From Candidatus Daviesbacteria bacterium (lineage in GTDB: Bacteria; Patescibacteriota; Microgenomatia; Daviesbacterales; UBA10151): 64,000 nt of DNA. Made by a program: the position numbers and the translations under genes. This document shows positions 34,979-57,935 of the stretch, one piece after another. Location of the stretch: NCBI GenBank assembly GCA_016176405.1, contig JACOXG010000010.1, forward strand, positions 33,078 through 97,077. The letters run 5' to 3'. The notes below the pieces were generated by a model. The model was not told the origin of the DNA. It ran no database searches and saw only the letters and a program-made list of their open reading frames with translations. Numbering within the stretch: the stretch's first letter is position 1; the number at the start of each line of letters is the position of its first letter.

Positions 34979-35011
34979 ATCTATAGCAAAAAGATTTATA
35001 ATAATTAGTAT

Positions 35012-38513: not shown

Positions 38514-40403
38514 ATGATAAATGAATTCACATTTCTTCGAGTATATAAAGACATAGCATATCAAAAAGCATCAGAAACTGATGTTAATATGTTATACAAT
38601 GATTTGTCTAGTGATATTGGAGACAAGCCAGAATTCAATAAGTGGTTTGAGAATAAATATCCGATAAAGCTAGATAAGATTATTTCTATTGATGCTATTG
38701 CTCATGAGATTCATGCTAATGGAGATTCCGTATTACAGAAAATTTATCCTGGGGCTGACATAGATATATTTAAGTCGGAACTCGATAGACTGGCAGGTAT
38801 GGAAAATACAAATGATGTCAGAAAACTAAATAGGGGATTCTTTACAACTTTACTTAGTGACGGAGACTTGATATTTCTTGAAAAGCAACAAGTCGGAAGA
38901 ACGATAAAGGATGATATATTCCCAGCAATAGAAGAATATAAGAAACTATATGATGCTGGAATAGGGTCTAAGGGAGAATTGCTGACATTAGATAGATATT
39001 ATAGGGGGCAAAATAAGAAATACCATGATGATGTAATTAGCAAGGGGCTTGATAAAGACGAGAATGAGCCAATGGTTATTGGTGGCCCCGCATCATTAGA
39101 AATGGTTGATAAGGAAGGACATCTAATCACAGCTAAAGCTCTTGATGCAGCATTTTATAAGTTTATGAATCAATTTAGAACTCGTGATATAAACTTAGCC
39201 CATACGGATGTTCAAATTGGCTGGCCATTGCCTGCATATATAACAAAAAATGGTAGCGTATTCCAGTCTGGCGTAGATGATAAGGGGCTATGGGTTATAT
39301 CAGAATTAAGGGACGACAATAAGATAGCAAATAGGGTTGCAGAGCAAATAAAAGCAGGAGTATTTAAATCATATTCTATAGCTGGGAGCGCATCAAAAAC
39401 ACAGAATGTGCAGAAAGGGGCACAGAATTATACGCAAGTAGATGAACTTTCCCTACAAGAAATTACAATTTGTTTACCTTTCGGGTCAAAAATTTGGACT
39501 TTGGTAGGGCTAAAAAATATTGAAGACATAAAAGTCGGCGAATTTGTACTTACCCATAAAAGTAGATTTAAGCCTGTAGTTAAGACCTTTAAAAGATTTA
39601 CAGATGAAGAAATAGTAGTCTTAAAAACAGATTTTGGTAATGTTTTAAAGGCTACTAAGGAGCATCCGGTTCTAGTCAGAGAAGAGTTTGATGGACAGGT
39701 TAATAAAAATTGGGTTCCAATAAAGAATTTAATCCCAAGTAATGAAGTGTATGTGTATGATAGTTTGCATAAAAATTCGGTCTTTACAGAAGTTTGGATT
39801 AAAGAAATTAGTGTAGAAAATTATAAAGGGTATGTGTATAATTTAGCAGTAGAAGAAGATAATTCATATACTACGGAGGCTTGTGTAGTGCATAATTGCG
39901 AAAAAGGAATGAATCAAGGAGCACATTTTGATATATTGAAGGGAGAGAAAATGGCCTTAGATGAAATATTTAAAGGAGATTGGGACAAATATGCCGATTA
40001 TGGCAGTGGATATTATTACAAGTTTATAAAAGAAAATCCAGAGTTCGACACTAAAGAATTTCAAGAATATGTAATAGTACATAATAAAGCTGACAGAGAC
40101 TCTGGAGAATTGGGAGATATAGCCAATTTTGAAATTGATAGATTAGCCAATGAATTTGGTTCTAAAAACTTACAAAAGGGTATAGATATTACAAAGGAGT
40201 ATAAGGATATGAATGCATTTGATGCTCTACGAAAGTTCTTGGAAAAGGATGCTGATGATAGACAAAAGGCTCATAGAGAGCTTCTAGACAAGTATGGTTT
40301 TCCAGAAGATGGTGAATACAAAAATGTTCGGGAAGATAAGGATGATGAGATTTATCATTATGAACCGTGGACCGCTAATACCTCTGGGAGAATTAAAGAA
40401 TAA
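38514..40403 (+). CDS. HK97-type prohead protease (U35/S78-like) interrupted by a mini-intein
   Basis: Protease core 'GGPASLEMVDKEGHLITAKALD..LAHTDVQIGWP..KGLWVISEL..KAGVFKSYSIAG'. The intein runs 39471..39896. Confidence 0.6.
   Translation: MINEFTFLRVYKDIAYQKASETDVNMLYNDLSSDIGDKPEFNKWFENKYPIKLDKIISIDAIAHEIHANGDSVLQKIYPGADIDIFKSELDRLAGMENTNDVRKLNRGFFTTLLSDGDLIFLEKQQVGRTIKDDIFPAIEEYKKLYDAGIGSKGELLTLDRYYRGQNKKYHDDVISKGLDKDENEPMVIGGPASLEMVDKEGHLITAKALDAAFYKFMNQFRTRDINLAHTDVQIGWPLPAYITKNGSVFQSGVDDKGLWVISELRDDNKIANRVAEQIKAGVFKSYSIAGSASKTQNVQKGAQNYTQVDELSLQEITICLPFGSKIWTLVGLKNIEDIKVGEFVLTHKSRFKPVVKTFKRFTDEEIVVLKTDFGNVLKATKEHPVLVREEFDGQVNKNWVPIKNLIPSNEVYVYDSLHKNSVFTEVWIKEISVENYKGYVYNLAVEEDNSYTTEACVVHNCEKGMNQGAHFDILKGEKMALDEIFKGDWDKYADYGSGYYYKFIKENPEFDTKEFQEYVIVHNKADRDSGELGDIANFEIDRLANEFGSKNLQKGIDITKEYKDMNAFDALRKFLEKDADDRQKAHRELLDKYGFPEDGEYKNVREDKDDEIYHYEPWTANTSGRIKE
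39471..39896 (+). other. mini-intein (142 aa, no endonuclease domain) inside the prohead protease gene
   Basis: Block A 'CLPFG', block B 'TKEH', blocks F/G 'VYNLAVEEDNSYTTEACVVHN' followed by Cys+1. Length 426 nt, in frame. Confidence 0.65.
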
Positions 40404-40830: not shown

Positions 40831-40897
40831 ATTAAAACGAAGAAGGAAAAACCTAAGCCAAAGCCAAAAAAGTAAAACTAAATAAAGTATCTATGAT

Positions 40898-40945
40898 ATT
40901 AGTCTGGAGAGAGAAATCTTTTCAGACTAATATTCTTTTTTCTTT
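40898..40945 (+). terminator. rho-independent terminator
   Basis: 9-bp perfect inverted repeat ATTAGTCTG..CAGACTAAT with a 16-nt loop, followed by a T-rich run 'ATTCTTTTTTCTTTTTC'. Confidence 0.6.
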
Positions 40946-40966
40946 TTCTTTCAATATAATATAATA
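40944..40966 (+). promoter_or_regulatory. copy of the conserved phage promoter cassette (TTTCTTTCAATATAATATAAT)
   Basis: Same motif as at 42604, 52425 and 54850. Includes a TATAAT -10 element. Confidence 0.5.
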
Positions 40967-40971
40967 TATGT

Positions 40972-41634
40972 ATGGATATAAAAATGGTTTTGTCTTCAAT
41001 GCTTCTTATAACTGCCTGTTCTTCTGTGCAGCCGATGTATCAAGATTCAGAAAAAATAGTGTACAACTATTCAGAGGTAGTAGTTCCCCCAGTTATTTCT
41101 AAAAAGACTGAGGAGACTATTAAGACTATGCCTATTCCAACTCCCGAACCAGCCCCTATCTTAATGCCAGAGCTCGCTCCAGTAAATTATGATTTCTATA
41201 AAAAGCCAATTTTAGAGAGTGTAGATGAAGCAATACAGCTAAAAATATCTCCATTTAATGATGAAGTATCTGAACCATTACAATTTAAGCTTGGTGGAAG
41301 TGTTAGTAAAGATTACTTGGAGATACAGAATAAGAGTAACGCAAGCCTATACTTTGTGGCAATCAGAATAAATACAATAAATCAAATCTATAAGAAAGAC
41401 GGGGTCTACAAACCAATTCAAGAAATCAAACCTGGAGAAAGAATCAAAGTTTCTCTAGGGGATTTTGTTGGATTTAATTCAAGTGAAAAAATATCTTCCT
41501 TAATTCTTAGCTTTAGTGTCCATGAGATAAACAATTCAGTGCCAAAAGGAATGTATAATCATTATGTAAAGTCATTTCAAAAGAGTTTAGATTGGGACAA
41601 AGATATTCAATCTATAGAATATGTATCAAAATAG
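40972..41634 (+). CDS. lipoprotein (signal peptide plus lipobox)
   Basis: 'MDIKMVLSSMLLITAC' has a basic n-region, a hydrophobic core and lipobox I-T-A-C. Confidence 0.5.
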   Translation: MDIKMVLSSMLLITACSSVQPMYQDSEKIVYNYSEVVVPPVISKKTEETIKTMPIPTPEPAPILMPELAPVNYDFYKKPILESVDEAIQLKISPFNDEVSEPLQFKLGGSVSKDYLEIQNKSNASLYFVAIRINTINQIYKKDGVYKPIQEIKPGERIKVSLGDFVGFNSSEKISSLILSFSVHEINNSVPKGMYNHYVKSFQKSLDWDKDIQSIEYVSK

Positions 41635-41662
41635 AGGGAAGTTTTTTGGGAAATAATTTCTA

Positions 41663-42604
41663 ATGATTCATGTAAGATATGCCCCAAGCCCTACGGGAGA
41701 TCCTCATGTAGGAAATTTGCACACAGCTCTATTTAATTGGTTGTTTGTAAAACATTTTGGGGGGAAATTTACATTAAGGATTGATGATACAGACACTAAT
41801 CGAAATGTGCCAGATGGATTAGATAAAATTTTAGATAGTTTGGCGTATCTGGGGATGGATTTTAATGATGGCCCATTTTTTGCTTCTGATAGTTTAGACA
41901 GTCATAGATATGCCGCTGATAAGCTTGTTAATTCAGATAATGCATATTACTGTAATTGTACCAATGATGCTTTAAGGATTGCTAGAGAGTTCGCTGTCAG
42001 TAACAGAAAGGCATATAAATATAATAACCATTGTCGTGACTTAGGGCTTCGTAAAACAACGGATTCAGTTATCCGTTTTAAAATGCCATTGGATGGTGTC
42101 ACAAAATTTCATGATATGATTTATGGGGATATATGTTTTGATAATAGTCTGTTAGAGGATTTTGTAATTATGAAGTCTAATGGTTATCCTACATATCATT
42201 TAGCTACCGTTATTGATGATAATAGAATGAATATTACTCATGTTATGAGAGCCAATGATTGGATTTCAAGCACTCCAAAACATATCTGTATTTATAATGC
42301 ATTGGATTATGTATTACCTAATTTTGTTCATTTGCCATTAATTTTAGACAAGGATAGAAAAAAATTGAGTAAACGTTCTGGAGATGCTACATCAATTCTT
42401 TGGTATAGGGATAATGGTTATTATCCTGATGCCATGATTAATTTCTTGGCTTTACTTGGTTGGTCATTGGACGATAAAACAACAATTATTTCTAGAGCAG
42501 ATTTGATTAAATACTTTAGTCTAGACCGAGTTAGAAAATCGAGTTCCATATTTGATACTAACAAATTAGATTGGATTAACAAAAAGTATTCAAACATGCG
42601 ATAA
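41663..42604 (+). CDS. truncated class I glutamyl-tRNA synthetase paralog (GluQRS/YadB-like catalytic domain)
   Basis: 'RYAPSPTGDPHVGNLHTALFNWLF..FTLRIDDTDTNR' (HIGH region, ~ GluRS '[31 protein letters not shown]'). KMSKS is 'KLSKRSG'. At 313 aa it lacks the anticodon-binding domain. Confidence 0.65.
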   Translation: MIHVRYAPSPTGDPHVGNLHTALFNWLFVKHFGGKFTLRIDDTDTNRNVPDGLDKILDSLAYLGMDFNDGPFFASDSLDSHRYAADKLVNSDNAYYCNCTNDALRIAREFAVSNRKAYKYNNHCRDLGLRKTTDSVIRFKMPLDGVTKFHDMIYGDICFDNSLLEDFVIMKSNGYPTYHLATVIDDNRMNITHVMRANDWISSTPKHICIYNALDYVLPNFVHLPLILDKDRKKLSKRSGDATSILWYRDNGYYPDAMINFLALLGWSLDDKTTIISRADLIKYFSLDRVRKSSSIFDTNKLDWINKKYSNMR

Positions 42605-42633
42605 AAACATTTTCTTTCAATATAATATAATAT
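42604..42633 (+). promoter_or_regulatory. conserved phage promoter cassette AAAAACATTTTCTTTCAATATAATATAAT
   Basis: Near-identical to the copies at 52425 and 54850. Followed by 'GAAGGAGG' and the ATG at 42667. Confidence 0.55.
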
Positions 42634-42666
42634 CTGTATAGGGAATTTAGAAGGAGGCTTCAATAG

Positions 42667-42879
42667 ATGGCTATCAAATATGTTCCAGGTGAATGGTTGG
42701 AGGCTTGTGTAGATTCCCATTATCCTGGAACTAGACATAAGGGTTGCCCAGCAACAGCTATTGCCACATGGCTTCGACGTAGGGGGTATGTGGTAACTGT
42801 TCAACGGACAGCTATCAAAACAATGGCTCCTGGTGACTTGGTATGGGAGGCTCAAGTAGTATGGGAGGATAGGCATTAG
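42667..42879 (+). CDS. hypothetical protein (locally elevated GC)
   Basis: ORF downstream of the promoter cassette with a strong RBS. Roughly 47% GC against an approximately 35% background. Confidence 0.4.
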   Translation: MAIKYVPGEWLEACVDSHYPGTRHKGCPATAIATWLRRRGYVVTVQRTAIKTMAPGDLVWEAQVVWEDRH

Positions 42880-43045
42880 AAATGGAGACTAGCAAGGACA
42901 GAGTTTTAAGGAAGCTAGGTTTAGAGAAATATGCTCGTTGGGACCGTAAAGATTATAATGATTGCTCAGCATGTCTTAGATGGGTTATGCATACGGAAAT
43001 TGAGCACAATCAGGCAGTAGAAAGGAATAGGAGGTCCAGCTACTA

Positions 43046-43246
43046 ATGCAAGCAGGAGTTAAGAAGCCAAAAGTAAAGTTAACTGGAACAGACGGAAATG
43101 TCTTTGCCCTAGCTGGTTTGGTAAATAGGGCCTTAAGAAAAGCTGGACAAGAAGATAAAGCCAAAGAGTTTTCTTCTAAGCTATTTAAGTGTGGGAGTTA
43201 TGGAGAAGCACTTAATTTAATGTCTGAATATGTAGAAGTATCTTAG
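43046..43246 (+). CDS. hypothetical protein
   Basis: ORF only. Confidence 0.3.
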   Translation: MQAGVKKPKVKLTGTDGNVFALAGLVNRALRKAGQEDKAKEFSSKLFKCGSYGEALNLMSEYVEVS

Positions 43247-43261
43247 AAAGGAGATTGTAAA

Positions 43262-43549
43262 TTGGCTACTTCAATATGCAGAATGTGCGGATCTAAGGCA
43301 GAGGTCGAGACTTTTTATGCCTATGATTCTCATGCTGCGGGCTGCAAGGATTGCTTGAAGAAAATTAGTGATAGAGTAACAAAATTGTTGCATGGAATGA
43401 GAACAGAGAATAATGTATTCTATAGTCATGATAACTTGACAATATCAATTGAGAACAATGATTCTTCTGTGATGCCAAAGACAGAAGAGTTAGAATGGGT
43501 TTACTCAATTTCGGCTCCAGATGATGAAAATTTATTGAGCTATAAATGA
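43262..43549 (+). CDS. zinc-ribbon protein
   Basis: 'CRMCGS..CKDC'. Confidence 0.3.
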   Translation: MATSICRMCGSKAEVETFYAYDSHAAGCKDCLKKISDRVTKLLHGMRTENNVFYSHDNLTISIENNDSSVMPKTEELEWVYSISAPDDENLLSYK

Positions 43550-43900
43550 GAATAAAGCCCACTATAATACTTGATCTAGACCACAAATGCTGGTGTAAAG
43601 ACTATTCATTAAGAATGTCTTTTCCCTCATGCCCTTGTGAATATTGTGAAGAGCATGAAGTTATAATAAATAAAAAACTTTGTTGTGAGTGTCATAATTA
43701 GAAAGGAATAAATAAAATGGTTGTTGCTGATACAAGATCTCTTTTCTCGAAAAGTATGGTATAATGCAGATTCTAGAATTGTATGTAACTATAAGGAGGT
43801 CTTATTGTTGATAGAATTTCTAGATTTACATGAAGCAGAGTTTACAATGGAAAGAACATGGCTTGGAAAGTTCATAGTTAGAGCCCCAAAGATGTAATCA

Positions 43901-44260
43901 ATGAGAATATTAGTTTGCGGGGACAGAAATTGGGTTGATAAGCTACTAATCAAAAGCGTATTAAGACAATTACTTAGTAAAAATTCTATAGACTATATAA
44001 TAGAAGGAGAGGCAAGAGGGGCAGATAGTTTGGCTAGAGAATGCGCCGAGGAGTTGGGAATTAAGGTATTGAAATTTCCAGCGGATTGGAAAAAGTATGG
44101 TAAAGCTGCTGGTCCTATTAGAAATCAACAAATGTTAAAAGAAGGAAAGCCAGATTTAGTATTAGCCTTTCATGATAACCTTCAAAATAGTAAGGGCACA
44201 GCAAATATGATAAAAATATCCAAAAAGGCAGGAATAGAAACTGAAGTCTATCATCATTAA
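43901..44260 (+). CDS. SLOG-family Rossmann protein (DUF2493-like)
   Basis: 'ILVCGDRNW..EGEARGADSLARECA..GKAAGPIRNQQML' pattern. Confidence 0.5.
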   Translation: MRILVCGDRNWVDKLLIKSVLRQLLSKNSIDYIIEGEARGADSLARECAEELGIKVLKFPADWKKYGKAAGPIRNQQMLKEGKPDLVLAFHDNLQNSKGTANMIKISKKAGIETEVYHH

Positions 44261-44296
44261 AAATCTATATAATCTAAATAGAAGGAGAAAAGTAAA

Positions 44297-44737
44297 ATGA
44301 GTGCTGATAATTACATTGAAGTTGTAGAAAAGGAAAAAGGCAAATTGTATGTTGGGTATATGCAATTTGCTAGTGATGAAAGAGCAGCCGAGCATCAAGA
44401 TTTGGAAGAGTTTCGTTGCACAACTTTAGAAGAAGCTATGGACAAGGCTTCTCAAATTTGGACAGCATATGGCATAACATATGTTCCATATGAGGAGCTG
44501 AACCATAAGGAGACTGTTAACTCTCAAGATAGGGAATGGTATAGCGCAGAAAGTTCTGCTCAAGACCATGTCTATGGAAAAGATTATTATGGAGACCCTG
44601 AATGCTCTGTATGTCATCAATGGGGAGAAGGATTTACTACAGAGTGCCCGAAAGTAGACATGAGGGAGGTTGTAGAGGATTTAATTAGTAAGCATAGACT
44701 AGATTATGTAAGTGGAGGATGGGTATTTAAGCTATGA
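44297..44737 (+). CDS. hypothetical protein
   Basis: Preceded by the TATATAATCTAAATAGAAGGAGAAAAG cassette. Confidence 0.35.
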   Translation: MSADNYIEVVEKEKGKLYVGYMQFASDERAAEHQDLEEFRCTTLEEAMDKASQIWTAYGITYVPYEELNHKETVNSQDREWYSAESSAQDHVYGKDYYGDPECSVCHQWGEGFTTECPKVDMREVVEDLISKHRLDYVSGGWVFKL

Positions 44738-45000
44738 AGAAAGCAGTAAAAGTTCTTAGTGTGTCTAATGGAATTGATAGTTTTTTGGAGGAATTGAATC
44801 GAATGGATAAGGAAGAGCTAGAAGTTTTTAAGAGACAAGTATTGAATGACTTTAAGGCAGATTTATTGAATAAGATAAATGATTATCAATATGGGTTGAC
44901 TGAGAAGAAACCTATTTCTGATGAAGAATCTGTTTCCAGAACTGCATTTATAGATGGATTAGAAGTAGTCAAACATTTTATTAGAGACGGGCATGCATAG
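44734..45000 (+). CDS. hypothetical protein
   Basis: ORF only. Confidence 0.3.
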   Translation: MKKAVKVLSVSNGIDSFLEELNRMDKEELEVFKRQVLNDFKADLLNKINDYQYGLTEKKPISDEESVSRTAFIDGLEVVKHFIRDGHA

Positions 45001-45017
45001 AAAAGGAGAATAAAGAA

Positions 45018-46025
45018 TTGCCAGCCGAATTATTTGGGGAAAGATTCTATTCAAATCGAGCACCAGCATGGCATAATTTGGGATTAGTGTTAGATACTCC
45101 AATGAGTGCAGTAGAAGCTTTTAGGAGAGTCGGTTCATATACAGTGCATTTAGATGATTTAGTTACAGAGGATGCACATGACTTAAAGAAGAAATTGATT
45201 GTTAGAGACTCTACAGTAGATGATCAGAAATTAGTTGTGTTTGGAATTGTTGATTCTGACTATAATGTAATTCAACCAGAAGCAATATGTAGAGTATGGG
45301 ATGAATTTATCATAGACCCAGTAGAGACATTAGGGGTATTAAGAGAAGGTAGATTAGTATTTGTAACTACGCAGCTCGAATCCTTTTCCTTGAACAAAGA
45401 AGACGACGTAGATAATTATTTGATTCTTGTTCACTCTCTAACTGCTGCCCCAACAAAGGTAATGGTCAGTCCAGTCAGGGTTGTGTGCCAAAATACCTTG
45501 ACACTAGCAGAAGGAAAGGCAAGCAAAGCCTATAAGTTTAAGCATACTATTTCTGAGACAGAGAGAATTGGTGAGAGGCTAGTAGAACTACATAATAAAT
45601 CTAAGAATCAAATCATATCTATTAAGGAAGCATTTGAAATGCTTACAAAATTCAAAGTTGGAAAGGAAACACTTGATGCAGTTTTGGATAATGCGTATCC
45701 ATTTCCAGTAGAGCCAGACAATCCTACTGAAGAGGAATTAGGGGATTTCGAGAAAAAGAGGTCAATAGTAACAAGTAGGAGAAATGCTATAAATTCTTTA
45801 TTCAATGGTGATGCTACTGGAGGAAATTTACAAACGGCGAAAGGGACCGCCTGGGGACTCTATAATTCCATCACAGAATTTGAAAGTTTTAGAAGTGGGT
45901 ATAAAGACGAGGCCATAGGTTATGATTCTTTATTGGGGGGTAGGGCAAGAACAAAAGCAATAGCATATAAAACTCTCATGTCATTGGCTAGAAAAGAAGT
46001 AAAAGGAGATTTGGTAGTAATATAA
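45018..46025 (+). CDS. hypothetical protein (335 aa)
   Basis: ORF only. Confidence 0.3.
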   Translation: MPAELFGERFYSNRAPAWHNLGLVLDTPMSAVEAFRRVGSYTVHLDDLVTEDAHDLKKKLIVRDSTVDDQKLVVFGIVDSDYNVIQPEAICRVWDEFIIDPVETLGVLREGRLVFVTTQLESFSLNKEDDVDNYLILVHSLTAAPTKVMVSPVRVVCQNTLTLAEGKASKAYKFKHTISETERIGERLVELHNKSKNQIISIKEAFEMLTKFKVGKETLDAVLDNAYPFPVEPDNPTEEELGDFEKKRSIVTSRRNAINSLFNGDATGGNLQTAKGTAWGLYNSITEFESFRSGYKDEAIGYDSLLGGRARTKAIAYKTLMSLARKEVKGDLVVI

Positions 46026-46186
46026 ATATATGTCTGCGCTGCTTGAGGATGGTGAAGGCAGATATCCCAACCTCCTGGGAAGATTGATCCCCTGACAACG
46101 CCTAGTAGTAGACCCAAAAATCTACACTCCCAAGCAGCGTATTGTAAGAATATAGAATCTAAAGTGGGGGGGAAGAGAGAATGCAT

Positions 46187-46260
46187 TGTGGATTAGTATA
46201 ATGGTAGTACATCAGGTTTTGACCCTGAGAATTTTGGTTCGAATCCAGAATCCACAGCCA
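46187..46260 (+). tRNA. tRNA-Gln (anticodon UUG), CCA encoded
   Basis: Hand-folded cloverleaf: 7-bp acceptor stem TGTGGAT/ATCCACA with U1-A72, discriminator G73, U8, D-loop GG, anticodon loop 'TTTTGAC' (UUG), T-arm TTTGG-TTCGAAT-CCAGA, 3' CCA. 74 nt. Confidence 0.8.
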
Positions 46261-46363
46261 TATGGATTAATGCCATAGAAGTCCAATTAGCATTTTTCAT
46301 TGTTTTTATTTTTGGGTTAGCGCTATTACTATTAGTATTAGGGCTTATAGAAATTCTTAAAAG

Positions 46364-46399
46364 TTGAATATAATATCTAAATAAGGAGAAAAGATTAAG
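46364..46399 (+). promoter_or_regulatory. promoter/RBS cassette variant (TTGAATATAATATCTAAATAAGGAGAAAAG)
   Basis: Shares 'TATAAT..CTAAATA.AAGGAGAAAAG' with the cassette at 44262-44296. Confidence 0.4.
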
Positions 46400-47173
46400 A
46401 TGAGTGGAGTAAAAGGAATGCATAAATATCATAGTCAATACATTTTTGCTGCAAAGCTAAATAAGGCAGTCAGAGCAGGTAGATTTGCTGAGCTAATCAA
46501 GACAAAGACCCTTGAGCAAATAGCAGCATTAGAAAGTCCTCCGATTAGTAGAGAAAGAGTCCGACAGATTTTAGCTTCATTTGGAATTAGCTCTAGTAGG
46601 ATGAAAGGTTCTTCCAAAACTATTTGTAAAATTTGCGGGAAATTAAACAGGTCTTATTCTACTAATATTCATAAATCATGTATGTCAGAATATACAAGAC
46701 AAGAAAGACAAGAGCAAGCTGTATTGCATAATGTTAAATGCACATATTGCAATAATTTGATTGTTAATCGTAACCATGAAACTAGAACTGGACTTAATAA
46801 GCATGCACTAATATATACCCATTTTTTCTGCAATAATAGCTGTCAAGGGAAATGGATGGCTATAATTAATGGAAATGGAAAATTTAGTTTAAAAGTCCCT
46901 TGTTTAAATTGCCATGATCTTTTTAAGTTTGTACAAAATACAGAAGGCTTTAAAGTTTTTTGCTCTATAAGCTGCAATAGTAGTTATAGATTAGGCAAAT
47001 ATGCTTCTGAGACTAGGCACAGTATTTCAGAGCATAGAAAGAAAATTGAGTATACATATTTAGTTCAAAAAGTTAAATCCTTGAAAGAGGATAATAATAA
47101 ATTTGGATTAAAGCCTTATGGGGTAAAACAGCTTCAGAAGTATGCAAATAGACTCTTGAATTGGAGTAATTGA
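46400..47173 (+). CDS. putative transcription regulator: sigma-70 region-4-like HTH plus multiple zinc fingers
   Basis: 'TLEQIAALESPPISRERVRQIL' resembles sigma region 4.2. Several CxxC/CxxH pairs lie downstream. Confidence 0.4.
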   Translation: MSGVKGMHKYHSQYIFAAKLNKAVRAGRFAELIKTKTLEQIAALESPPISRERVRQILASFGISSSRMKGSSKTICKICGKLNRSYSTNIHKSCMSEYTRQERQEQAVLHNVKCTYCNNLIVNRNHETRTGLNKHALIYTHFFCNNSCQGKWMAIINGNGKFSLKVPCLNCHDLFKFVQNTEGFKVFCSISCNSSYRLGKYASETRHSISEHRKKIEYTYLVQKVKSLKEDNNKFGLKPYGVKQLQKYANRLLNWSN

Positions 47174-47389
47174 ATGGGAAATAGAGAGCTAGAGCTTTTG
47201 AGAATGATAGCTTCAACCGATTTGGAAAGAGATGATGATCGGCGCCTTACCATGAAAGACAAAAGATCATTGAGGAGAATGTATCTTAATAAACTAATTA
47301 TGGCTGAGCCTGTTTTGTGGGAAGAAGGGCAACCATATGACAAGCTAATGGGATTAACTGAGAAAGGTAAATTATTTATAGATGGATAA
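47174..47389 (+). CDS. hypothetical protein
   Basis: ORF only. Confidence 0.3.
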   Translation: MGNRELELLRMIASTDLERDDDRRLTMKDKRSLRRMYLNKLIMAEPVLWEEGQPYDKLMGLTEKGKLFIDG

Positions 47390-47606
47390 TCTTGAAGTTT
47401 TAACTTCGTCCGCAGTTTGTTGTAGCAAGGAAATGGATAGATTAACTGATGAAGTAGATATAGGAGTTGGGATTCAGACATTTACATACGGATTTGAATG
47501 TTCTGAGTGTAGCAGGATGCTGCCTGCATGTTTTCATTGTGGAATACCTGAAGATGGCAGGCAGCATTGGACAGGGTGTTTAAGTTTGAAGGAGATAAAT
47601 GATTAA
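47382..47606 (+). CDS. hypothetical Cys-rich protein
   Basis: ORF only. Confidence 0.3.
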   Translation: MDNLEVLTSSAVCCSKEMDRLTDEVDIGVGIQTFTYGFECSECSRMLPACFHCGIPEDGRQHWTGCLSLKEIND

Positions 47607-47716
47607 AGAAGTTTGGGAAACACCCGATAGAAAACATTTTGTCAATAAGGAAGAGGCTGAGCGACATGATACATATTTATCTAATTTAGCTAAGCTAAAT
47701 AAGTTTTATCATTTAA

Positions 47717-47956
47717 ATGACGATGAAGGAGATACATGGTATTTTGTTAAGACAGAGGGATGAAGTAGCAAATATACAAGAAATAGCTGAGAGAGTGTTT
47801 CCTAGACTTAGTTATTTATCGGAGGGGGAGTGCTCTCCTGTGTGGCTTAATTTTCATACAGAATCTGGAGATCGAGATTATACATACATTAGAATTATGC
47901 AAGGGGCTACATTGAGAAAATTTGTGGAAGCATTTGATTATGAAGGAATAAAATGA
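47717..47956 (+). CDS. hypothetical protein
   Basis: ORF only. Confidence 0.3.
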   Translation: MTMKEIHGILLRQRDEVANIQEIAERVFPRLSYLSEGECSPVWLNFHTESGDRDYTYIRIMQGATLRKFVEAFDYEGIK

Positions 47957-48153
47957 CAAAAGATGAGTTTTTGAAGCGTTATCATGTATACCAAGTCTCT
48001 ACTAAAGAAGAAGCTGAAAAAGAAATCGAGCAGATGGAAATTGTTAAAGATTGCATTATTGTTCCAGTTGGATTTGAAGGTTTAGGTTGGTGCTTAATGC
48101 TGAAAACGGCAGCTGATTATTTAGGTGAACTGGGAATAGCTGCAAATAGATAA
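47953..48153 (+). CDS. hypothetical protein
   Basis: ORF only. Confidence 0.3.
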   Translation: MTKDEFLKRYHVYQVSTKEEAEKEIEQMEIVKDCIIVPVGFEGLGWCLMLKTAADYLGELGIAANR

Positions 48154-48154
48154 G

Positions 48155-49726
48155 ATGAAAACAATATTATTTAAAGACAAAGCAAGAAAAGAACTTTTTG
48201 AAGGCATTAAAGTTCTATATGATGCTGTAAAATTCACTTTAGGCCCAAAAGGTAGAAATGCTGTTTTGCAAATGAGAACTGGCTATCCAAATATTTGTAG
48301 TGATGGGGCGACAATACTAAAGGACTTGTCATTACCAGACAGAGCACAAAATGCGGGGATGCAAATAGTAAAAGAAGCATCACAAAAGACCAATGATGCT
48401 GTAGGAGATGGGACTACTACATCAACAGTTTTAGCCTATTGGCTAGTATATGAGGCTTTCAAAGCCTTAGAGGCAGGACATTCTCCGTTAGACATTAGAA
48501 ATGGAATTGAACACGCATTAAAGCTAGTGAAATATGACTTATCTAAAATGTCTGTTCCAGTTAATAGTACACTACAAATCCAGCAAATTGCAGCCTTGGC
48601 TTCTCATGATGAAGAAATGGGGCAAATGGTAGCTGATGTATTAGCGAGAGTTGGATTAAAGGGGACTGTAGTTGTAGAGGAAGCCAAAGTTTTAAAAGAT
48701 ATAGTTGAATATGTAGATGGTATGCAGATTGATAGGGGATATTTAACGGAAAACTTTGCTGCTTTATATAATCAGAATGAAGTAACATTAGACAATCCAT
48801 ATATTTTAATTACAGAGCAGCCTATTTCAAATCCAAATGATATGGCAGCAGTTCTAGATAAAGTAGTGCAGAGTGGGAAACAGAACTTATTAGTAATAGC
48901 CGAAGATGTTATTGGCCATGCTTTGTCAACGCTGTTAGTTAATGTGCAGAAGAGGACAGTAAATAGTCTAGCAATTAGAGCGCCAGCAATTGAATTTCGT
49001 AGGACTGATATGCTAGAAGATATTGCAGTATTTACTGGTGGGGTAATGATTTCTAAGGCTTCTGGTAGAAGTATTAAGAATATTGAATTGTCAGATTTAG
49101 GCAGAGCAGGCAGAGTAATATCAACTAGAGATATAACAACTATAATTGGGGGCAAGGGAGAAAAGCAGAAAATACAAAATAGAATTAGTCAAATAAGGGA
49201 TGCGGACAGTAGAGAGAAGTCGCAATTCGACAAGGATTTGTATAAGGATCGTATTGCACACTTGTCTAGTGGTATAGCAGTAATCAAAGTGGGTGGAATA
49301 TCTGATGTAGATGTCCGAGAACGAAAAAGTAGAGTAGATGATGCTCTTGGCGCAACAAAGGCTGCAATGGAAGAAGGCATAGTTCCTGGCGGTGGAGTAG
49401 CATTGATACAAGCTTGTTCTCTATTAGATAATTTAAGACTAACAAATACACAGGATAGCCTTGGAGTTAAAGTATTCTACAATGCATTACAGCATCCATT
49501 ATGGTTAATTGCAGATAATTCAGGATATAATAACGGGGAATATGTTATAGAAGTAGTAAAGAAAAAGCAGACTGGTTATGATGCTTTTACAGGAGAATTT
49601 TGTGATGCAATAGAGAGAGGGATAGTAGACCCTACAAAGGTTGTTCGAGTAGCATTGGAAAACGCAGTTAGTGTTGCTTTTATATTGTTGACTACAGAAG
49701 CAGTTGTAGCAATCAAGGAGGAATAA
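48155..49726 (+). CDS. GroEL-like chaperonin (Cpn60 family)
   Basis: 'AVKFTLGPKGRNAVL', 'DAVGDGTTTSTVLA' and 'VPGGGVALIQA' match GroEL signature blocks. Confidence 0.8.
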   Translation: MKTILFKDKARKELFEGIKVLYDAVKFTLGPKGRNAVLQMRTGYPNICSDGATILKDLSLPDRAQNAGMQIVKEASQKTNDAVGDGTTTSTVLAYWLVYEAFKALEAGHSPLDIRNGIEHALKLVKYDLSKMSVPVNSTLQIQQIAALASHDEEMGQMVADVLARVGLKGTVVVEEAKVLKDIVEYVDGMQIDRGYLTENFAALYNQNEVTLDNPYILITEQPISNPNDMAAVLDKVVQSGKQNLLVIAEDVIGHALSTLLVNVQKRTVNSLAIRAPAIEFRRTDMLEDIAVFTGGVMISKASGRSIKNIELSDLGRAGRVISTRDITTIIGGKGEKQKIQNRISQIRDADSREKSQFDKDLYKDRIAHLSSGIAVIKVGGISDVDVRERKSRVDDALGATKAAMEEGIVPGGGVALIQACSLLDNLRLTNTQDSLGVKVFYNALQHPLWLIADNSGYNNGEYVIEVVKKKQTGYDAFTGEFCDAIERGIVDPTKVVRVALENAVSVAFILLTTEAVVAIKEE

Positions 49727-49728
49727 CA

Positions 49729-50343
49729 ATGGAATATCCAAAAATAGAAACATTATTTGATAGGGATAAAGACACATTTAAGGTTGATACAAGTAAATGG
49801 AGACTCCCAGAATTTGAGTATCTTCAAAATAATGAATGGCTTGTAACAGAAAAAATAGATGGGACAAATATACGAGTTATGTGGGATGGACAAAAAGTAG
49901 TGTTTGGTGGTAGAACTGACAATGCCAATCTATCAGCTTCTTTGGTAACTAGACTCCAAGAATTGTTCCCAGTAGAAAAATTCCAACTAAATTATCCTAA
50001 TGTATCCATGACTTTATATGGAGAGGGATACGGGGCAGGAATTCAAAAGGGTGGTGGAAATTATCTTCCAGATGGGAAGGATTTTATTTTGTTTGATGTG
50101 CTAATAAAGGACTATTGGCTATTGCAAGATGATATGAATGGCATAGCATCTAAACTGCAAATTAAGACTGTGCCATTTTTAGGGAAATATAATTTGAATG
50201 TTGTTACAAATATGGTGAAGTTAGGATTAGTTTCTACTTTTGGGTCATTTAAAGCTGAAGGTGTGGTAGTGAAGACTCCAGTTGGTCTATATTCTAGGTA
50301 CAATCAAAGACTTGTCGGGAAGTTAAAAGCGACAGATTTATAA
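49729..50343 (+). CDS. ATP-dependent RNA/DNA ligase-family nucleotidyltransferase (minimal Rnl-like)
   Basis: Motif I 'KIDGTN', motif III 'TLYGEGYG', motif IV 'FILFDV', motif V 'EGVVVK'. Confidence 0.55.
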   Translation: MEYPKIETLFDRDKDTFKVDTSKWRLPEFEYLQNNEWLVTEKIDGTNIRVMWDGQKVVFGGRTDNANLSASLVTRLQELFPVEKFQLNYPNVSMTLYGEGYGAGIQKGGGNYLPDGKDFILFDVLIKDYWLLQDDMNGIASKLQIKTVPFLGKYNLNVVTNMVKLGLVSTFGSFKAEGVVVKTPVGLYSRYNQRLVGKLKATDL

Positions 50344-50409
50344 TGACAATAAAGGAGTTGGAATGAACGACTTATTGAAGTATCTCAATAGCCCTAGAAA
50401 TATAAGGGA

Positions 50410-51066
50410 ATGGTTACTGCTTTGGATTCCTATCTGGTTATTATGTATTGGGATTGGTTTATCAATAGCATCAGTTTTGAGACATTTGCTATGACAATTG
50501 AACAAACAGTGTCTGAAATGTGGGGCAAGGATTATCAATTATTTGGATTAAATGACCCGTTCAATCCGAATAATTTTGTAGAAGGATTTCTTTGTACAAG
50601 AGCAGCTAATGATTATGGTTCGTTGATGATTTCAAAGGTCAATGGAACCAAATGCCCCCAACTAATTCAAGGGACTCCAAAACTACATTATCCATTTGAT
50701 AAAAATGGTAATTGGAATTTTCCGTCTGCTAGAAAAATTCTAGTCTATGAAAAGCTTGATGGAACAAATGTTGTTCAGTATGTCTATGGAGATAAAAAAC
50801 AGACATATACTTCGTATAAGACAAGACTAAGGCCGTTTCTTTCTGATGGTCGTTTTGGAGATTTCTTTGGTATGTGGCAAGATATGTTGAAGAAATATCC
50901 AAATATCAATAAGATCGCAGAGACAGGAGTAGCATATAGTTTTGAGCTGTATGGATATTTGAATCGTCATTTGATTGAATATTCTGTAGGTTTGGATTGC
51001 GCTTTATTGTTCATTAGATACCATTCAATATATCCACCAACTAAATTTGACATTTTTTCGCAGTAA
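50410..51066 (+). CDS. second ligase-like nucleotidyltransferase (motif I 'KLDGTN'), possibly truncated or frameshifted at its 3' end
   Basis: 'YEKLDGTNVVQY' and 'SFELYG'. A 35-codon continuation lies in another frame at 51069-51176. Confidence 0.4.
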   Translation: MVTALDSYLVIMYWDWFINSISFETFAMTIEQTVSEMWGKDYQLFGLNDPFNPNNFVEGFLCTRAANDYGSLMISKVNGTKCPQLIQGTPKLHYPFDKNGNWNFPSARKILVYEKLDGTNVVQYVYGDKKQTYTSYKTRLRPFLSDGRFGDFFGMWQDMLKKYPNINKIAETGVAYSFELYGYLNRHLIEYSVGLDCALLFIRYHSIYPPTKFDIFSQ

Positions 51067-51194
51067 AGATTTTCCTGTCCCAGTCTGCAAATTATTAACT
51101 AAGATAGACAAAGACTATGTTTGGAATTATGGTGAACAAAAGAAAGTGATGTCTTCTAAGCTAAAAGAGTAATGGATTTAAGCTAAGGTTAGAG

Positions 51195-51803
51195 ATGATG
51201 GACGAGAAGAATAGACAAGCAATAATAGATTATTTTAGACAAATTCGTCCTAGAAGAACTATAGCTAGAATTCAAGTTCAGGGGACATTTATTGCGTGTG
51301 AATTTGACAATGGAACTCGTTGGGAAGTTCGATCAGCTGATATTCCAATAGATTATTCTAGCAGGGACTTAGAAGTAATTGATTTAGCATATTCAGAAAA
51401 AATTTCTCCTGGTGATTTTGCTGATGCTATGGAGAATCTATCTTGGAAGCAATTAAATGAATTTAAGAGATATTGGGAGAATCAATATCCAACTTTAAAA
51501 ATTGACATTAATTCCAAAATTACAAATGAGACAGAATTGTTTCAGTCTACAGTATGTAAATTTTTAAATATTTCATTAGAAGAATTTATGGCTCAGTATG
51601 GAAAAAAGAAGACCGAAGCTATGATCGAAGGGGTCGGAGCCTGGAAACCACTAAAAAATGATGAAGCATTTGAATCAATGTATACAATGGAGCCTAAGTG
51701 GGAGAAACCTATAGGTTGGACACAAAGGGCTAAGAAAGAGATGACAGAGGAAGAGAATATTGAAATTGTAGATAACCAGAAGCGTAAAATCATTCTAGAT
51801 TAG
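51195..51803 (+). CDS. hypothetical protein with shared C-terminal tag (..VDNQKRKIILD)
   Basis: C-terminal peptide shared with 60227..60781 and four others. Confidence 0.4.
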   Translation: MMDEKNRQAIIDYFRQIRPRRTIARIQVQGTFIACEFDNGTRWEVRSADIPIDYSSRDLEVIDLAYSEKISPGDFADAMENLSWKQLNEFKRYWENQYPTLKIDINSKITNETELFQSTVCKFLNISLEEFMAQYGKKKTEAMIEGVGAWKPLKNDEAFESMYTMEPKWEKPIGWTQRAKKEMTEEENIEIVDNQKRKIILD

Positions 51804-51836
51804 AGCGCTCTCAAAAAAGAATATAATATATGTAGA

Positions 51837-52355
51837 ATGGCAATTCTCAAAATAGTAATTCTCTCGGCAACACTGGCATTCTTAGCCCAGTTTGTAGCTG
51901 TAGGGTCTCCTAATTTTGTAGAAGTGAATGAGTCGGCATTGGTTTTACTACGAGATCGCTATCCAACTATGTTTGAACTAGTTATGTATAATGTTATAGA
52001 GAACATAGAATGGACATCCGATGCTGACCAGATACCAGGCTGGAAAGTCGGTGCAGATTATATCATGTTGCCAGATGATGGCAATGCAGATATTGTTATG
52101 GCAGGAAGGTTGGCACATGAAGCTATGCATATCTTGCTCTGGAAAAACTGTATTCAGCCTGGTGGTGCATGGGGCGAGGAGTTTGCCATTTATCAGGAGA
52201 CAGTCACGCTAAGAAAATTAAATCGTTTTGGTGAATATAATGGAGTTGAAGATTATATTCAGTCACTACAGAAAGCCATTGGCACACACGGTAAAGGGAC
52301 AGAGATAGTATCTCTACCCGCATATTGTGAAGGTGGAATTGCATTAGTTAAATAA
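51837..52355 (+). CDS. secreted HExxH zinc metallopeptidase-like protein
   Basis: N-terminal signal peptide 'MAILKIVILSATLAFLAQFVAVG' and 'LAHEAMHILLW' (HExxH). Confidence 0.45.
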   Translation: MAILKIVILSATLAFLAQFVAVGSPNFVEVNESALVLLRDRYPTMFELVMYNVIENIEWTSDADQIPGWKVGADYIMLPDDGNADIVMAGRLAHEAMHILLWKNCIQPGGAWGEEFAIYQETVTLRKLNRFGEYNGVEDYIQSLQKAIGTHGKGTEIVSLPAYCEGGIALVK

Positions 52356-52393
52356 GTTTTAAGGAAGATGCTATTAGAACTATCTAATTGTTT

Positions 52394-52424
52394 GCCTCTA
52401 GTAAAAATTTAAAATACTGGAGGC
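52394..52424 (+). terminator. hairpin (candidate terminator) immediately upstream of the promoter cassette
   Basis: GCCTCTAGTA / TACTGGAGGC is a 10-bp stem with one G-U, extendable by TTT/AAA. T-rich sequence follows after the cassette begins. Confidence 0.4.
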
Positions 52425-52454
52425 AAAAACATTTTCTTTCAATATAATATAATT
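52425..52454 (+). promoter_or_regulatory. conserved phage promoter cassette
   Basis: AAAAACATTTTCTTTCAATATAATATAATT. Confidence 0.55.
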
Positions 52455-52462
52455 AATCTATC

Positions 52463-52648
52463 TTGAAAGGGGAGAAAAGAAAAGTGCAGTTAACTAAAGT
52501 AGTGTATCCATACAACCCATATCAGTATGAATGTCAGTATTGCTCCCGAAGATTAGGTCATTCTCAGAAAGTTCATGACACAGTAGTATCAAAGAACAAC
52601 TATTATTCTCTTGTAATTGATAGGGTAATGAGAAGGAAGTGGGCATAA
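52463..52648 (+). CDS. small hypothetical protein (start more likely the GTG at 52484)
   Basis: Downstream of the promoter cassette. 'CQYCSRRLGH'. Confidence 0.35.
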   Translation: MKGEKRKVQLTKVVYPYNPYQYECQYCSRRLGHSQKVHDTVVSKNNYYSLVIDRVMRRKWA

Positions 52649-52926
52649 TAAGGAGAATGTATCCGATGCTTCAGTATGAGGTAATAGCAGAGTTTAGGTC
52701 AAAGACTAAGCCTGGGAAATGTTACATAGTTAAGAAAAGATTAGACACCGGAATGCTAACTTGCAATTGCCCAGCTTGGATTTTCAATAAATATGAGGAT
52801 AGAACTTGCTATCATACATTAAAGTTAATGGCAAGTGGGGCATTGCAGTCACAGCAGCAAAATCAAGTTATTGATAGAATTGAGGCTGTCAATTCAGGAA
52901 GGAGAGTATTGATACTAGATGAGTAA
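52639..52926 (+). CDS. SWIM-type zinc-finger protein
   Basis: 'CNCPAWIFNKYEDRTCYH' fits CxCx(n)CxH. Confidence 0.35.
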   Translation: MGIIRRMYPMLQYEVIAEFRSKTKPGKCYIVKKRLDTGMLTCNCPAWIFNKYEDRTCYHTLKLMASGALQSQQQNQVIDRIEAVNSGRRVLILDE

Positions 52927-53119
52927 AAAGACGAGTTTTGAGGTTATAATGAAACGAAGCCATTACACAAGTTATTTTATTGAGGTCGAAACAGAAGAGG
53001 ATGCTGAAGTCTTAGTAAAAGATGGTAACGGGACGTTTGGGGCTGATTGGGAAAGCCTGGAGGAAGAAGTGTATGCGGTGCTCTGTCCCCCAAAATCTTT
53101 TTCTTCAAATAAATTATAA
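52919..53119 (+). CDS. hypothetical protein
   Basis: ORF only. Confidence 0.3.
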   Translation: MSKKTSFEVIMKRSHYTSYFIEVETEEDAEVLVKDGNGTFGADWESLEEEVYAVLCPPKSFSSNKL

Positions 53120-53289
53120 TTATATTATCTTAAATAGGGGGGTTTTATGAGAAAAGGCAAATGTTATATTTGTGGAAAAATATCTAAGTTATATCTTGAT
53201 TATGGCGGACCAGGAAAAGTAAAAGGCTATTGTCTAAAATGCTCAAATAAAAATAGAAATCTAGCCTAAAATTAGCTTTAAAAATAATA

Positions 53290-54849
53290 GTGGAGAATAG
53301 AAAAGTGACAAATAAGTTCCAGTCTACTTTAGCCGCATATAATAAGGCGTCATATGCCTTGATATATTGCAAGACACCAGAAGAGCTAAGGGCAACACAA
53401 TCAATTCAAAAACTTTCTTTTGAGCTTGGCAGAACATTTGGTTTATGGTCTGTGACTAAGGGATGGAGACTTTTCGGTAATAAGACTAAATTTGGGCAGG
53501 TTACTGAAGTTTTTGATATTACTGACCCAGTCGAGGCTATGAAGAAAGTATCCACTTTTCCAAAAGGGGCTGGTATCTATGTGCTAATCAATTTCCACCC
53601 ATTCATGAAAAGCCCAGAGGCAATTCAGCTATTGAAAGATACAGCCGAAACTTGTCGAGAGGATAATGTCACTCTTGTATTTGTGTCCAATGTAATGGAA
53701 ATTCCAACAGAGCTCTCTAGGGATTTCACTCAGCTAGATTTTTCATTGCCAGATGAAGAGGAGCTTGAGAGCAGACTAAATGAGATAGCCAAAAATGCCC
53801 CTACTGTGAAATTGCCTGCTGACGTCTCTCCGTTAATAGACGCGGGCAAAGGGATGACAGGATCAGAATATTCTGATGCCCTTGCAAGTATGTTGGTAAA
53901 GGAGAAGAAATATAATCCTTCAAGTGTTCTATTGGAAAAAGTGAAAATCCTTGAGAAGGCATCTATTAGATACTACAATTCAAGTCTGAATCTAAATGAT
54001 GTTGGTGGACTTGAGAACTTGAAGAAGTGGGCAGTATCCGTTAAGCCAACATTTGGAACAAAGGCAAAGACTGCTGGAGTAAAGCCGCCAAAGGGAGTAT
54101 TGTTAGTTGGAGTTCCTGGCTGCGGAAAGAGCTATGTTATGAAGGCTATGTCTTCGGCTTGGGGAATTCCATTGCTATGGGGAGATATATCAGCAGCATA
54201 TTCTAAGTTTCTTGGGGAGACAGAGGAGCGAATGAAATATATGTTTGAGGTGTCCAGAATAATGTCTCCTTGTATATTGGGAATTGATGAATTGGAAAAG
54301 AGCATTGCTGGATATGAAGGTGGGGGGCAAACAAGTGGGGGTGTCCCAAATAGAGTGCTAGGAATTATGTTGACAGAGATGCAAGAGTCTGACTCATCAG
54401 TAGTAATAGTAGCCACAGCAAATGAAGCATGGAAGCTGCCTGCCCCGCTTGTCAGAAGGTTCGATGAAGTATTCTTTGTAGACCTCCCTAGTGACCCAGA
54501 GAGGAAGGACATATTTAAGATTCATTTGGCAAAGGTAAAAGCCAGCAATGATATGGATATAGAGCATCTATCAAAAATAACAGAAGGATTCTCTGGGGCT
54601 GAAATAGAGAAGGTATGTCGAAAGGCTCAAATTGCAGCCTTCGGAATGAACCAGAAGATTAGCCAGAACTATGTTGTTACAGCAGTGAATGGGATAGTCC
54701 CAGTCAGTACGTCAATGGCTGAAGAAGTAACAGCTATTAGAAAGTGGGCAGAGGCAAGAGCGGTGCCAGCATCAAAGATTCAGGCATATGATATTACTAA
54801 GGGTAGACGGGCACTTGATCTTAGCGATGGCCCAACAATTATGGCATAG
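53290..54849 (+). CDS. AAA+ ATPase (classic AAA clade) with the C-terminal tag ..RRALDLS 8 aa before its end
   Basis: Walker A 'GVPGCGKSY', Walker B 'ILGIDELEKS', SRH 'LPAPLVRRFDEVFFVDLP'. Confidence 0.75.
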   Translation: MENRKVTNKFQSTLAAYNKASYALIYCKTPEELRATQSIQKLSFELGRTFGLWSVTKGWRLFGNKTKFGQVTEVFDITDPVEAMKKVSTFPKGAGIYVLINFHPFMKSPEAIQLLKDTAETCREDNVTLVFVSNVMEIPTELSRDFTQLDFSLPDEEELESRLNEIAKNAPTVKLPADVSPLIDAGKGMTGSEYSDALASMLVKEKKYNPSSVLLEKVKILEKASIRYYNSSLNLNDVGGLENLKKWAVSVKPTFGTKAKTAGVKPPKGVLLVGVPGCGKSYVMKAMSSAWGIPLLWGDISAAYSKFLGETEERMKYMFEVSRIMSPCILGIDELEKSIAGYEGGGQTSGGVPNRVLGIMLTEMQESDSSVVIVATANEAWKLPAPLVRRFDEVFFVDLPSDPERKDIFKIHLAKVKASNDMDIEHLSKITEGFSGAEIEKVCRKAQIAAFGMNQKISQNYVVTAVNGIVPVSTSMAEEVTAIRKWAEARAVPASKIQAYDITKGRRALDLSDGPTIMA

Positions 54850-54879
54850 AAAAACATTTTCTTTCAATATAATATAATT
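54850..54879 (+). promoter_or_regulatory. conserved phage promoter cassette
   Basis: AAAAACATTTTCTTTCAATATAATATAATT. Confidence 0.55.
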
Positions 54880-57914: not shown

Positions 57915-57935
57915 AATATCTATCAGGAGAGGGCA

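Follow-up and report, generated by a model that had tools for sequence, protein, structure and literature searches.

A repeated cassette with overlapping TATAAT hexamers as a putative promoter family in the variable region of an uncultured ~110-kb phage

The stretch analysed here (the window, 64,000 nucleotides of contig JACOXG010000010.1) is part of the ~110-kb genome of an uncultured phage. From 40.9 kb of the window onwards, it carries a block of small open reading frames (ORFs) together with genes for a truncated GluRS, YspA/SLOG, DUF932, tRNA-Gln, GroEL, RNA ligase, an AAA ATPase and DUF3150. A short element that recurs at gene junctions of this block, termed class A here, is the subject of this report. 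Of the ~110 kb, 81.5 kb was read, consisting of the window and its flanks (contigs L007 and L005, 100% identical to the window in the overlaps). The window was AT-rich with a GC content of ~34%, and the gene chain built from the ORF list contained + strand ORFs only.

The 29-mer AAAAACATTTTCTTTCAATATAATATAAT was found exactly at three sites, all on the + strand, with 0 matches in 100 shuffles (Table 1). The 21/22-nt core TTTTCTTTCAATATAATATAAT added a copy at 40944, and a diverged fifth copy was identified at 53092. Searches with an exact 17-mer and a relaxed regular expression showed no further copies in the 81.5 kb. All five copies were on the coding strand and confined to 40.9-54.9 kb; four were strictly intergenic and the 53092 copy overlapped the last codons of ORF 52919-53119. 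A first-pass annotation of the same DNA had listed the cassette at four sites, each preceding a small gene. The four sites were recovered, with the second one shifted by one position (42603 instead of 42604), but the copy at 53092 had been missed and the gene at 40972, which encodes 220 amino acids, is not small. The motif search that it proposed, here over the 81.5 kb, showed copies that were not randomly spread, all of them on the + strand and at gene junctions.

Class A copies preceded a lipoprotein gene with the GluRS-like gene and runs of ORFs of 40-120 amino acids without family matches. The 42603 copy was upstream of the Shine-Dalgarno (SD) sequence GAAGGAGG, followed by 6 small ORFs and the YspA gene. 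DUF3150 would be served directly by the 54850 copy, and the diverged copy at 53092 has the AAA ATPase gene behind it. The genes downstream of class A were ORFans or accessory genes and not virion genes.

Table 1. Coordinates of the class A copies, hairpins, simple promoter candidates and the ORF 46400 protein in the window.
Feature	Position	Strand	Description
Class A copy 1	40944..40965	+	core TTTTCTTTCAATATAATATAAT only; terminator U-run in place of AAAAACA; ATG 40972 lies 6 nt past the second TATAAT
Class A copy 2	42603..42631	+	exact 29-mer; begins within the TAA stop of the GluRS-like gene
Class A copy 3	52425..52453	+	exact 29-mer; then SD GGGGAG, GTG start 52484 and three ORFans
Class A diverged copy	53092..53120	+	AAAATCTTTTTCTTCAAATAAATTATAAT; overlaps the 3' end of ORF 52919-53119; then a Cys-rich ORF of 40 amino acids and the AAA ATPase gene
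Class A copy 4	54850..54878	+	exact 29-mer; directly after the TAG stop of the AAA ATPase gene; then an ORF of 58 amino acids and the DUF3150 gene
Intrinsic terminator hairpin, 18-bp stem	40895..40934	+	folding free energy -22.7 kcal/mol, z -4.4; then U-run UCUUUUUUCUUUUUCUUUC
Hairpin, 13-bp stem	52391..52427	+	folding free energy -17.8 kcal/mol, z -5.3; after the 51837 gene; overlaps the first 3 A of copy 3
Putative simple promoter, second family	44259..44296	+	AAAAATCTATATAAT, leader TCTAAATAGAAGGAGAAAAG; before genes of 146 and 88 amino acids and DUF932
Putative simple promoter, second family	46359..46399	+	AAAAGTTGAATATAAT, leader ATCTAAATAAGGAGAAAAG; before ORF 46400
Putative simple promoter	51813..51836	+	AAAAAAGAATATAAT, 9 nt, ATG of the HExxH protein, no SD; candidate (near-)leaderless start
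Putative simple promoter	34988..35011	+	AAAAAGATTTATAAT, 9 nt, ATG 35012, no SD
ORF 46400 protein	46400..47173	+	sigma-70 region-4-type helix-turn-helix (ISRERVRQIL), zinc-ribbon and FCS motifs

The four exact-core copies contained two overlapping TATAAT hexamers, and both hexamer positions kept TAnnnT across seven aligned sites (five in the window and two in a related phage described below). The invariant columns over these seven sites were C, TTTTCTT, AATA, A, TA and AT, with the TTTTCTT box located upstream of the hexamers and an A-tract before the box. Conservation did not extend past the motif into the region expected to hold +1. The first-pass annotation had described a TATAAT element without a TTGACA-like -35, and this was borne out: a sigma-70 scan listed no + strand site at any copy and the -35 slot read AAAAAC/AAAACA. 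A hidden -35 (TTTCAA with the downstream hexamer) was dropped because it had no conserved partner. A TGn extension was also absent, the bases upstream of the -10 being AATA/ATAA. The motif read TATAATATAAT and the T4 late element TATAAATA was absent from it.

Beyond the class A copies, intergenic TATAAT was found 17 times on the + strand vs 2 times on the - strand (binomial p = 7e-4) and was enriched in intergenic vs coding DNA (Fisher p = 1.6e-6). Canonical -35/-10 pairs were not enriched between genes in the phage (6 of 163). The distance from hexamer to start codon was either 26-35 nt with an SD in between or 6-9 nt before ATG without an SD. Reading the element as an archaeal TATA box was rejected, as the genes are bacterial (GroEL, DnaB, DnaG, PolA, RecA, lipobox) with an SD downstream.

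Only four strong intergenic hairpins were found in the 81.5 kb, and two of the four abutted class A copies. The stem-loops reported earlier directly before the copies at 40944 and 52425 both folded strongly. The 40895 hairpin ended a long upstream operon, and the 52391 hairpin is a less canonical terminator because its U-tract lies 4 nt downstream. No upstream hairpin was found at the copies at 42603, 54850 and 53092, which left hairpins at 2 of the 5 copies. The same units had been called insulated morons; the upstream terminator was present, but no terminator was found downstream and the units continued straight into the next promoter.

Simpler sites composed of an A-tract and TATAAT (AAAA, 2-7 nt, [A/T]TATAAT) occurred ~8 times on the + strand and 0 times on the - strand. 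Six of them were intergenic or just ahead of a gene block (34997, 44268, 46369, 51822, 64430 and 66151), and the class A TTTTCTT box was absent from these simpler promoters. The second cassette family that had been noted at 44262 and 46364 belongs among these sites. It proved to be real but small, with TCTAAATA and AGGAGAAAAG in common, indels between them and a third member in the related phage. Its leader TCTAAATA...AGGAGAAAAG reappeared downstream of the class A core in contig L059 of that relative, and the two families are therefore related. In addition, GAATATAGAATCTAAAG at 46150-46170 is similar to the promoter/leader of the second family (GAATATAATATCTAAATA) and, at ~20 nt before tRNA-Gln, may be the tRNA promoter.

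Two genes for exported proteins had been noted to start about 10 nt after a TATAAT element. A lipobox (LLITAC) was present in the 40972 protein and HEAMH in the 51837 protein. The spacing from TATAAT to ATG, read from the sequence, was 6 nt for the 40972 gene and 9 nt for the 51837 gene. The 9-nt spacing occurred three times, at 35012, at 51837 and in the orthologue of 51837 on contig L019 of the relative, where it was conserved. For the 40972 product (220 amino acids, MDIKMVLSSMLLITAC...), the first ATG is needed for the charged n-region and lies exactly 6 nt after the second TATAAT. Leaderless starts at 40972, 51837 and 35012 are plausible from this spacing. The absence of an SD is weak evidence for them, because an SD-like 4-mer was found at ~61% of gene starts and ~39% were without it.

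The only close relative found was a phage of run SRR22388038, represented by two short contigs, L019 (GroEL 73% identical) and L059 (DUF932 76% identical), both at the protein level. Third codon positions of the window phage vs this relative were 51% identical. Contig L059 carried AAAAATCTTTTTCTTTCAATATAATAAGAT (AAAAATCTTTTTCTTTCAATATAAT...), which matched class A at 25 of 29 positions with an exact 17-nt core, and L019 carried a second variant, TAAATTCTTTTTCTTTAAATAGATTATTAT. The relative's copies were located at gene junctions non-orthologous to those of the window. The element was thus kept at different junctions despite ~51% third-position identity, and the motif is therefore under selection. 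Class A is a family maintained as such and not merely inherited in place.

Comparison of gene order showed that the genes between the conserved anchors at 43262 and DUF932 were not the same in the relative, and a class A copy lay midway among them; in the window this place is taken by a simple promoter. Downstream of GroEL, the order in the relative was three small ORFs, a class A variant, the orthologues of 58733 and 59479 from the window, and then a simple promoter ahead of the 51837 orthologue. The gene content between GroEL and the 51837 gene thus differed in the relative, with promoters at the joints. The putative promoters sit at joints of exchanged cassettes, and recombination there is only suggested; contigs from the same site were 100% identical and showed no recombinant variants. 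At L059:911-931, the class A promoter candidate is followed by AAGGAGAAATATATGTAATAG, in which an SD precedes an ATG that runs directly into a stop codon. This start-stop mini-ORF lies ~85 nt before the next called gene.

Searches for further relatives were negative. Searches of IMG/VR with the exact core, the degenerate motif and the AAA and GluRS proteins showed nothing or single chance matches, and the genome_contigs scan showed one chance match to an Actinomycetota contig. The metagenome scan with a 23-nt degenerate motif produced at least 120 single matches, none of them a relative by tblastn. Contigs L010-L017 with AAA-ATPase homologues were discarded as cellular Ycf46 loci, and the ~100-kb DUF932 contigs L056-L058 as other phages without synteny. 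An odd 19 nt at the start of contig L004 was a Nextera adapter.

Another repeated intergenic motif, AATAAAAGTGTAAAGTAGAA, was found three times and precedes the block leading to the major capsid gene, which is located beyond the window (window-equivalent 67161-68513). Its copies were at L005:6874-6893, 6935-6954 and 7832-7851 (window-equivalent 64505, 64566 and 65463), two of them exact and one with 2 mismatches. GGAG was present at a fixed distance after 2 of the 3 copies, and the motif could be a late-promoter class or a 5' untranslated region element.

A sigma-region-4-like regulator had been assigned to ORF 46400. Alone, this protein, which carries TLEQIAALESPPISRERVRQIL, scored 13-14 bits against Pfam Sigma70_r4, below the cut-off of 24.1. 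An all-against-library search showed 25 distant homologues (26 library representatives at E≤0.001 including its own). When ORF 46400 and 23 homologues were aligned, Sigma70_r4 was matched by 18 of the 24 family members with a best E of 2e-17. The assignment was thus supported through the helix-turn-helix (HTH) of the family, with the window protein by itself scoring below the threshold. The family is small and uncharacterised, combining the N-terminal region-4 HTH with two CxxCG zinc ribbons and an FCxxxCQGxW motif. Sigma70_r2 (region 2) had no match in the family, and because region 2 is lacking, ORF 46400 is by its predicted domains a DNA-binding protein and not a sigma factor. The protein was conserved in the relative with 58% identity. 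A structure model (predicted local distance difference test score, pLDDT, 74; predicted TM score, pTM, 0.36) showed no PDB match at E≤0.001. A link between ORF 46400 and the class A motif is only hypothetical.

For the phage as a whole, exact protein look-ups in Logan located the window proteins on contigs of runs SRR12113383/84/420/430, and two SRR12113430 contigs (93,474 and 16,057 bp) tiled a circle of ~109.8 kb. The identical proteins MBI2020180.1 and MBI2020174.1 were present in NCBI on a contig of 109,932 bp that had been assigned to the bin "Candidatus Daviesbacteria bacterium". This contig is clearly phage, either mis-binned or a phage of a Candidate Phyla Radiation (CPR) bacterium, and the host label is unverified. 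A near-identity DNA search of GenBank phages showed no match, the terminase protein had no tblastn match among 50,697 phage records, and the DNA polymerase was of family A with ≤27% identity to any phage polymerase. Genes for replication (DnaB, primase, PolA, ThyA, ThyX and RecA), terminase, ribonucleotide reductase, portal and prohead protease were identified, and no sign of lysogeny was found in the phage, which looks virulent. No RNA polymerase or sigma factor was found in the ~82 kb read with Pfam listings of called genes and scans.

Other genes and repeats were also observed. ThyA and ThyX were side by side (679-1566 and 1898-2680), together with a dCMP deaminase. Three large ORFs between portal and prohead protease (22344-24392, 26212-29868 and 31434-33617) encoded large enzymes: one had DUF192 with an ADP-ribosyltransferase, another was an SNF2 helicase of 1218 amino acids and another was a type IB topoisomerase-MuF fusion (TopoIB-MuF). 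These may be virion-packaged, injected enzymes, and the ADP-ribosyltransferase is reminiscent of T4 Alt, a modifier of host RNA polymerase. Weak Hint/intein domain matches were found in the minor-head/endonuclease-like ORF 35588-36895 and the prohead protease (38514-40403), and homing-endonuclease-like ORFs were also present (21347-22375). A tandem array with a 12/18-nt period was located at 57185-57730 inside ORF 57219-57914, where a Logan contig breaks; the neighbouring gene at 57936-58718 had a conserved 3' end in common with this ORF (57853-57916 vs 58657-58720). In the replication module, a 227-nt intergenic region at L007:5726-5952 (window-equivalent -3596 to -3370) contained the iteron-like repeats GGACCTGTAT, GGACCTATA and GGACCTAAT and is a candidate replication origin. 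The GluRS consisted of the catalytic domain only (41663-42604, 313 amino acids), covering positions 2-315 of the 470-position gltX model with 403 bits. With tRNA-Gln(UUG) at 46187-46260, the RNA ligase at 49729-50343 and RtcB plus an RlaP-type nucleotidyltransferase within L005:5249-6403, it looks like a tRNA repair or charging toolkit. Finally, tRNA-Met and tRNA-Ile(UAU) were identified in L007.

Overall, class A is probably a strong, -10-driven promoter family of this ~110-kb phage that the host housekeeping sigma-70/sigma-A RNA polymerase would read without a -35. Taken together, position, orientation, spacing, conservation and terminator pairing are much more readily explained by a family of promoters than by chance repeats or RNA motifs. 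The most economical reading is that the host holoenzyme recognises the sites by their -10 only, as is typical of early or accessory-region phage promoters. Recognition would rest on TATAAT, with the second overlapping hexamer aligning with the single hexamer of the simpler promoters, and the AT-rich extended upstream region and the TTTTCTT box behind the A-tract may add to it. Transcription would start ~7 nt past the hexamer, which predicts leaders of ~20-30 nt carrying the SD and essentially no leader for 40972. Within the 14-kb variable region (40.9-55 kb), the promoters would head short units of ORFans and accessory genes. At places that call for an end to the preceding unit, a terminator hairpin appears to be joined to the promoter, and the U-tract of the hairpin runs into the T-rich box. 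The nearly identical copies at cassette junctions would probably also act as short homology patches for shuffling, by analogy with the promoter early stem-loop (PeSL) cassettes discussed below.

Several points weigh against this reading. A -10-only promoter of the sigma-70 type would not need exact identity over 29 nt with such sharp edges, and an extra factor or recent gene conversion among the copies could be involved. Promoter activity is predicted from the sequence, and either of the two overlapping hexamers could be the one used. The unverified "Candidatus Daviesbacteria" bin label means that host polymerase rules are not checkable against the sites, and the ~28 kb outside the part read could hold a phage RNA polymerase, a sigma factor or further copies. 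In addition, a single relative with two short contigs makes the recombination case thin.

The best surviving alternative, though unlikely, is that class A copies are middle-type promoters in which the host sigma reads the -10 and a phage protein binds the AAAAwCwTTTTCTT box, replacing the region-4/-35 contact. ORF 46400 would be the candidate protein: its family has a genuine Sigma70_r4 HTH and it is predicted to be expressed from a simple promoter. The box was invariant across the 7 sites in two phages though no -35 is present, and its restriction to class A apparently makes two promoter classes. However, nothing connects ORF 46400 to the box, the fold search was uninformative, no AsiA or MotA homologues were present among the scanned proteins, and promoters can be strengthened by T-rich spacers and A-tracts with no factor involved. 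A bolder form of this idea, in which the phage infects a CPR bacterium, in line with its NCBI bin label, and class A is a new kind of -35-independent promoter whose box is read by a stand-alone protein of the ORF 46400 family replacing host sigma region 4, is quite improbable. If true, it would be a switch resembling sigma appropriation, in a lineage about whose transcription nothing is known. Rather than a new transcription system, class A seems to be a strong phage promoter family of the ordinary kind.

The first-pass annotation had compared the cassette to late promoters read by a phage sigma, as T4 gp55 reads TATAAATA. The presence of a -10-like element only, with no -35, and of a sigma region-4-related protein encoded nearby is consistent with this comparison, but the analogy failed in the present analysis and we consider it very unlikely. 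The hexamer is TATAAT, the genes downstream are ORFans or accessory genes, the capsid gene lies behind another motif, ORF 46400 is without region 2 and no sigma match was found in the part read. It is also highly improbable that the element is not a promoter and acts instead as an RNA-level site in read-through transcripts (processing or a translational operator) or as a pure recombination or homing target. The copies at 42603 and 54850 have no upstream terminator and would be transcribed as RNA, and the sites coincide with mosaic junctions. Against this, the -10 consensus within the element is perfect, copy 1 is situated immediately behind a strong terminator and 6 nt from an ATG, no RNA structure was predicted over the motif and Rfam showed no matching family. 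Promoters of a phage single-subunit or divergent multisubunit RNA polymerase, which would explain the long exact recognition sequence with sharp borders as in T7-type promoter families and whose gene could lie in the 28 kb outside the part read, are the least probable reading, since no RNA polymerase was found in the ~82 kb, the +1 region after the motif is not conserved and all that the diverged copies retain is TAnnnT, the positions characteristic of a sigma-70 -10.

In a phage lineage without a cultured relative and with a possible CPR host, a conserved promoter family would be one of the few handles on transcription. Class A would provide a first transcription-unit map, mark the variable accessory region and offer a short sequence for in vitro or reporter assays. 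If the CPR host link is true, it hints at -10-dominant promoters and leaderless starts in CPR; otherwise it would be a further non-T4 example of promoter/terminator cassettes at the joints of shuffled phage genes.

Promoters of sigma-70/sigma-A with a -10 only or an extended -10 are common in cyanobacteria, Campylobacterota and Mollicutes. Class A resembles them in the consensus TATAAT, the AT/T-rich upstream DNA and the absence of TTGACA, but it has no TGn and its upstream 18 nt are far more conserved than such promoters need. T4 middle promoters combine a MotA box with a sigma-70 -10 and are used through sigma appropriation with AsiA. They share with class A a host-type -10 and a conserved phage-specific box in the place of the -35, although the class A box is unrelated in sequence to the MotA box and no MotA/AsiA homologue was found among the scanned proteins. 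T4 late promoters (TATAAATA, read with gp55/gp33) are similar in having an element in the -10 region only and no -35, but differ in the hexamer and the class of downstream genes, and no gp55-like sigma was found in the ~82 kb. Lambdoid morons are accessory genes with their own promoter and terminator. The lipoprotein gene with its own putative promoter directly after a terminator is comparable, whereas class A has no downstream terminator, is a repeated family and not a one-off insertion, and is found in a phage without a sign of lysogeny.

In T4-type phages, PeSL cassettes combine strong early promoters of the sigma-70-like kind with stem-loops; they occur in hyperplastic regions rich in ORFans and mediate modular shuffling there (Arbiol et al. 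2010, PMC2839356; Comeau et al. 2014, PMC4122927). Class A is similar in that conserved intergenic promoter-like elements, some with a terminator stem-loop, are repeated and clustered in an ORFan-rich variable region, are followed by an SD and start codon, and occur at junctions at which the gene content of related phages is not the same; early timing would be a further likeness. In contrast to PeSL, class A has no -35 box, only 2 of its 5 copies have the hairpin, which lies on the upstream side of the promoter and is not GGGG/CCCC-rich, and the phage is unrelated to T4, as its terminase search showed. Recombination between class A copies, of the kind that yields indels or mini-circles with PeSL, is only suggested by the mosaic junctions at promoters in the two short relative contigs. 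From its sequence and conservation, class A is a real, selected family of predicted promoters (and promoter-terminator units), a variant of known phage regulatory cassettes in a poorly known lineage.

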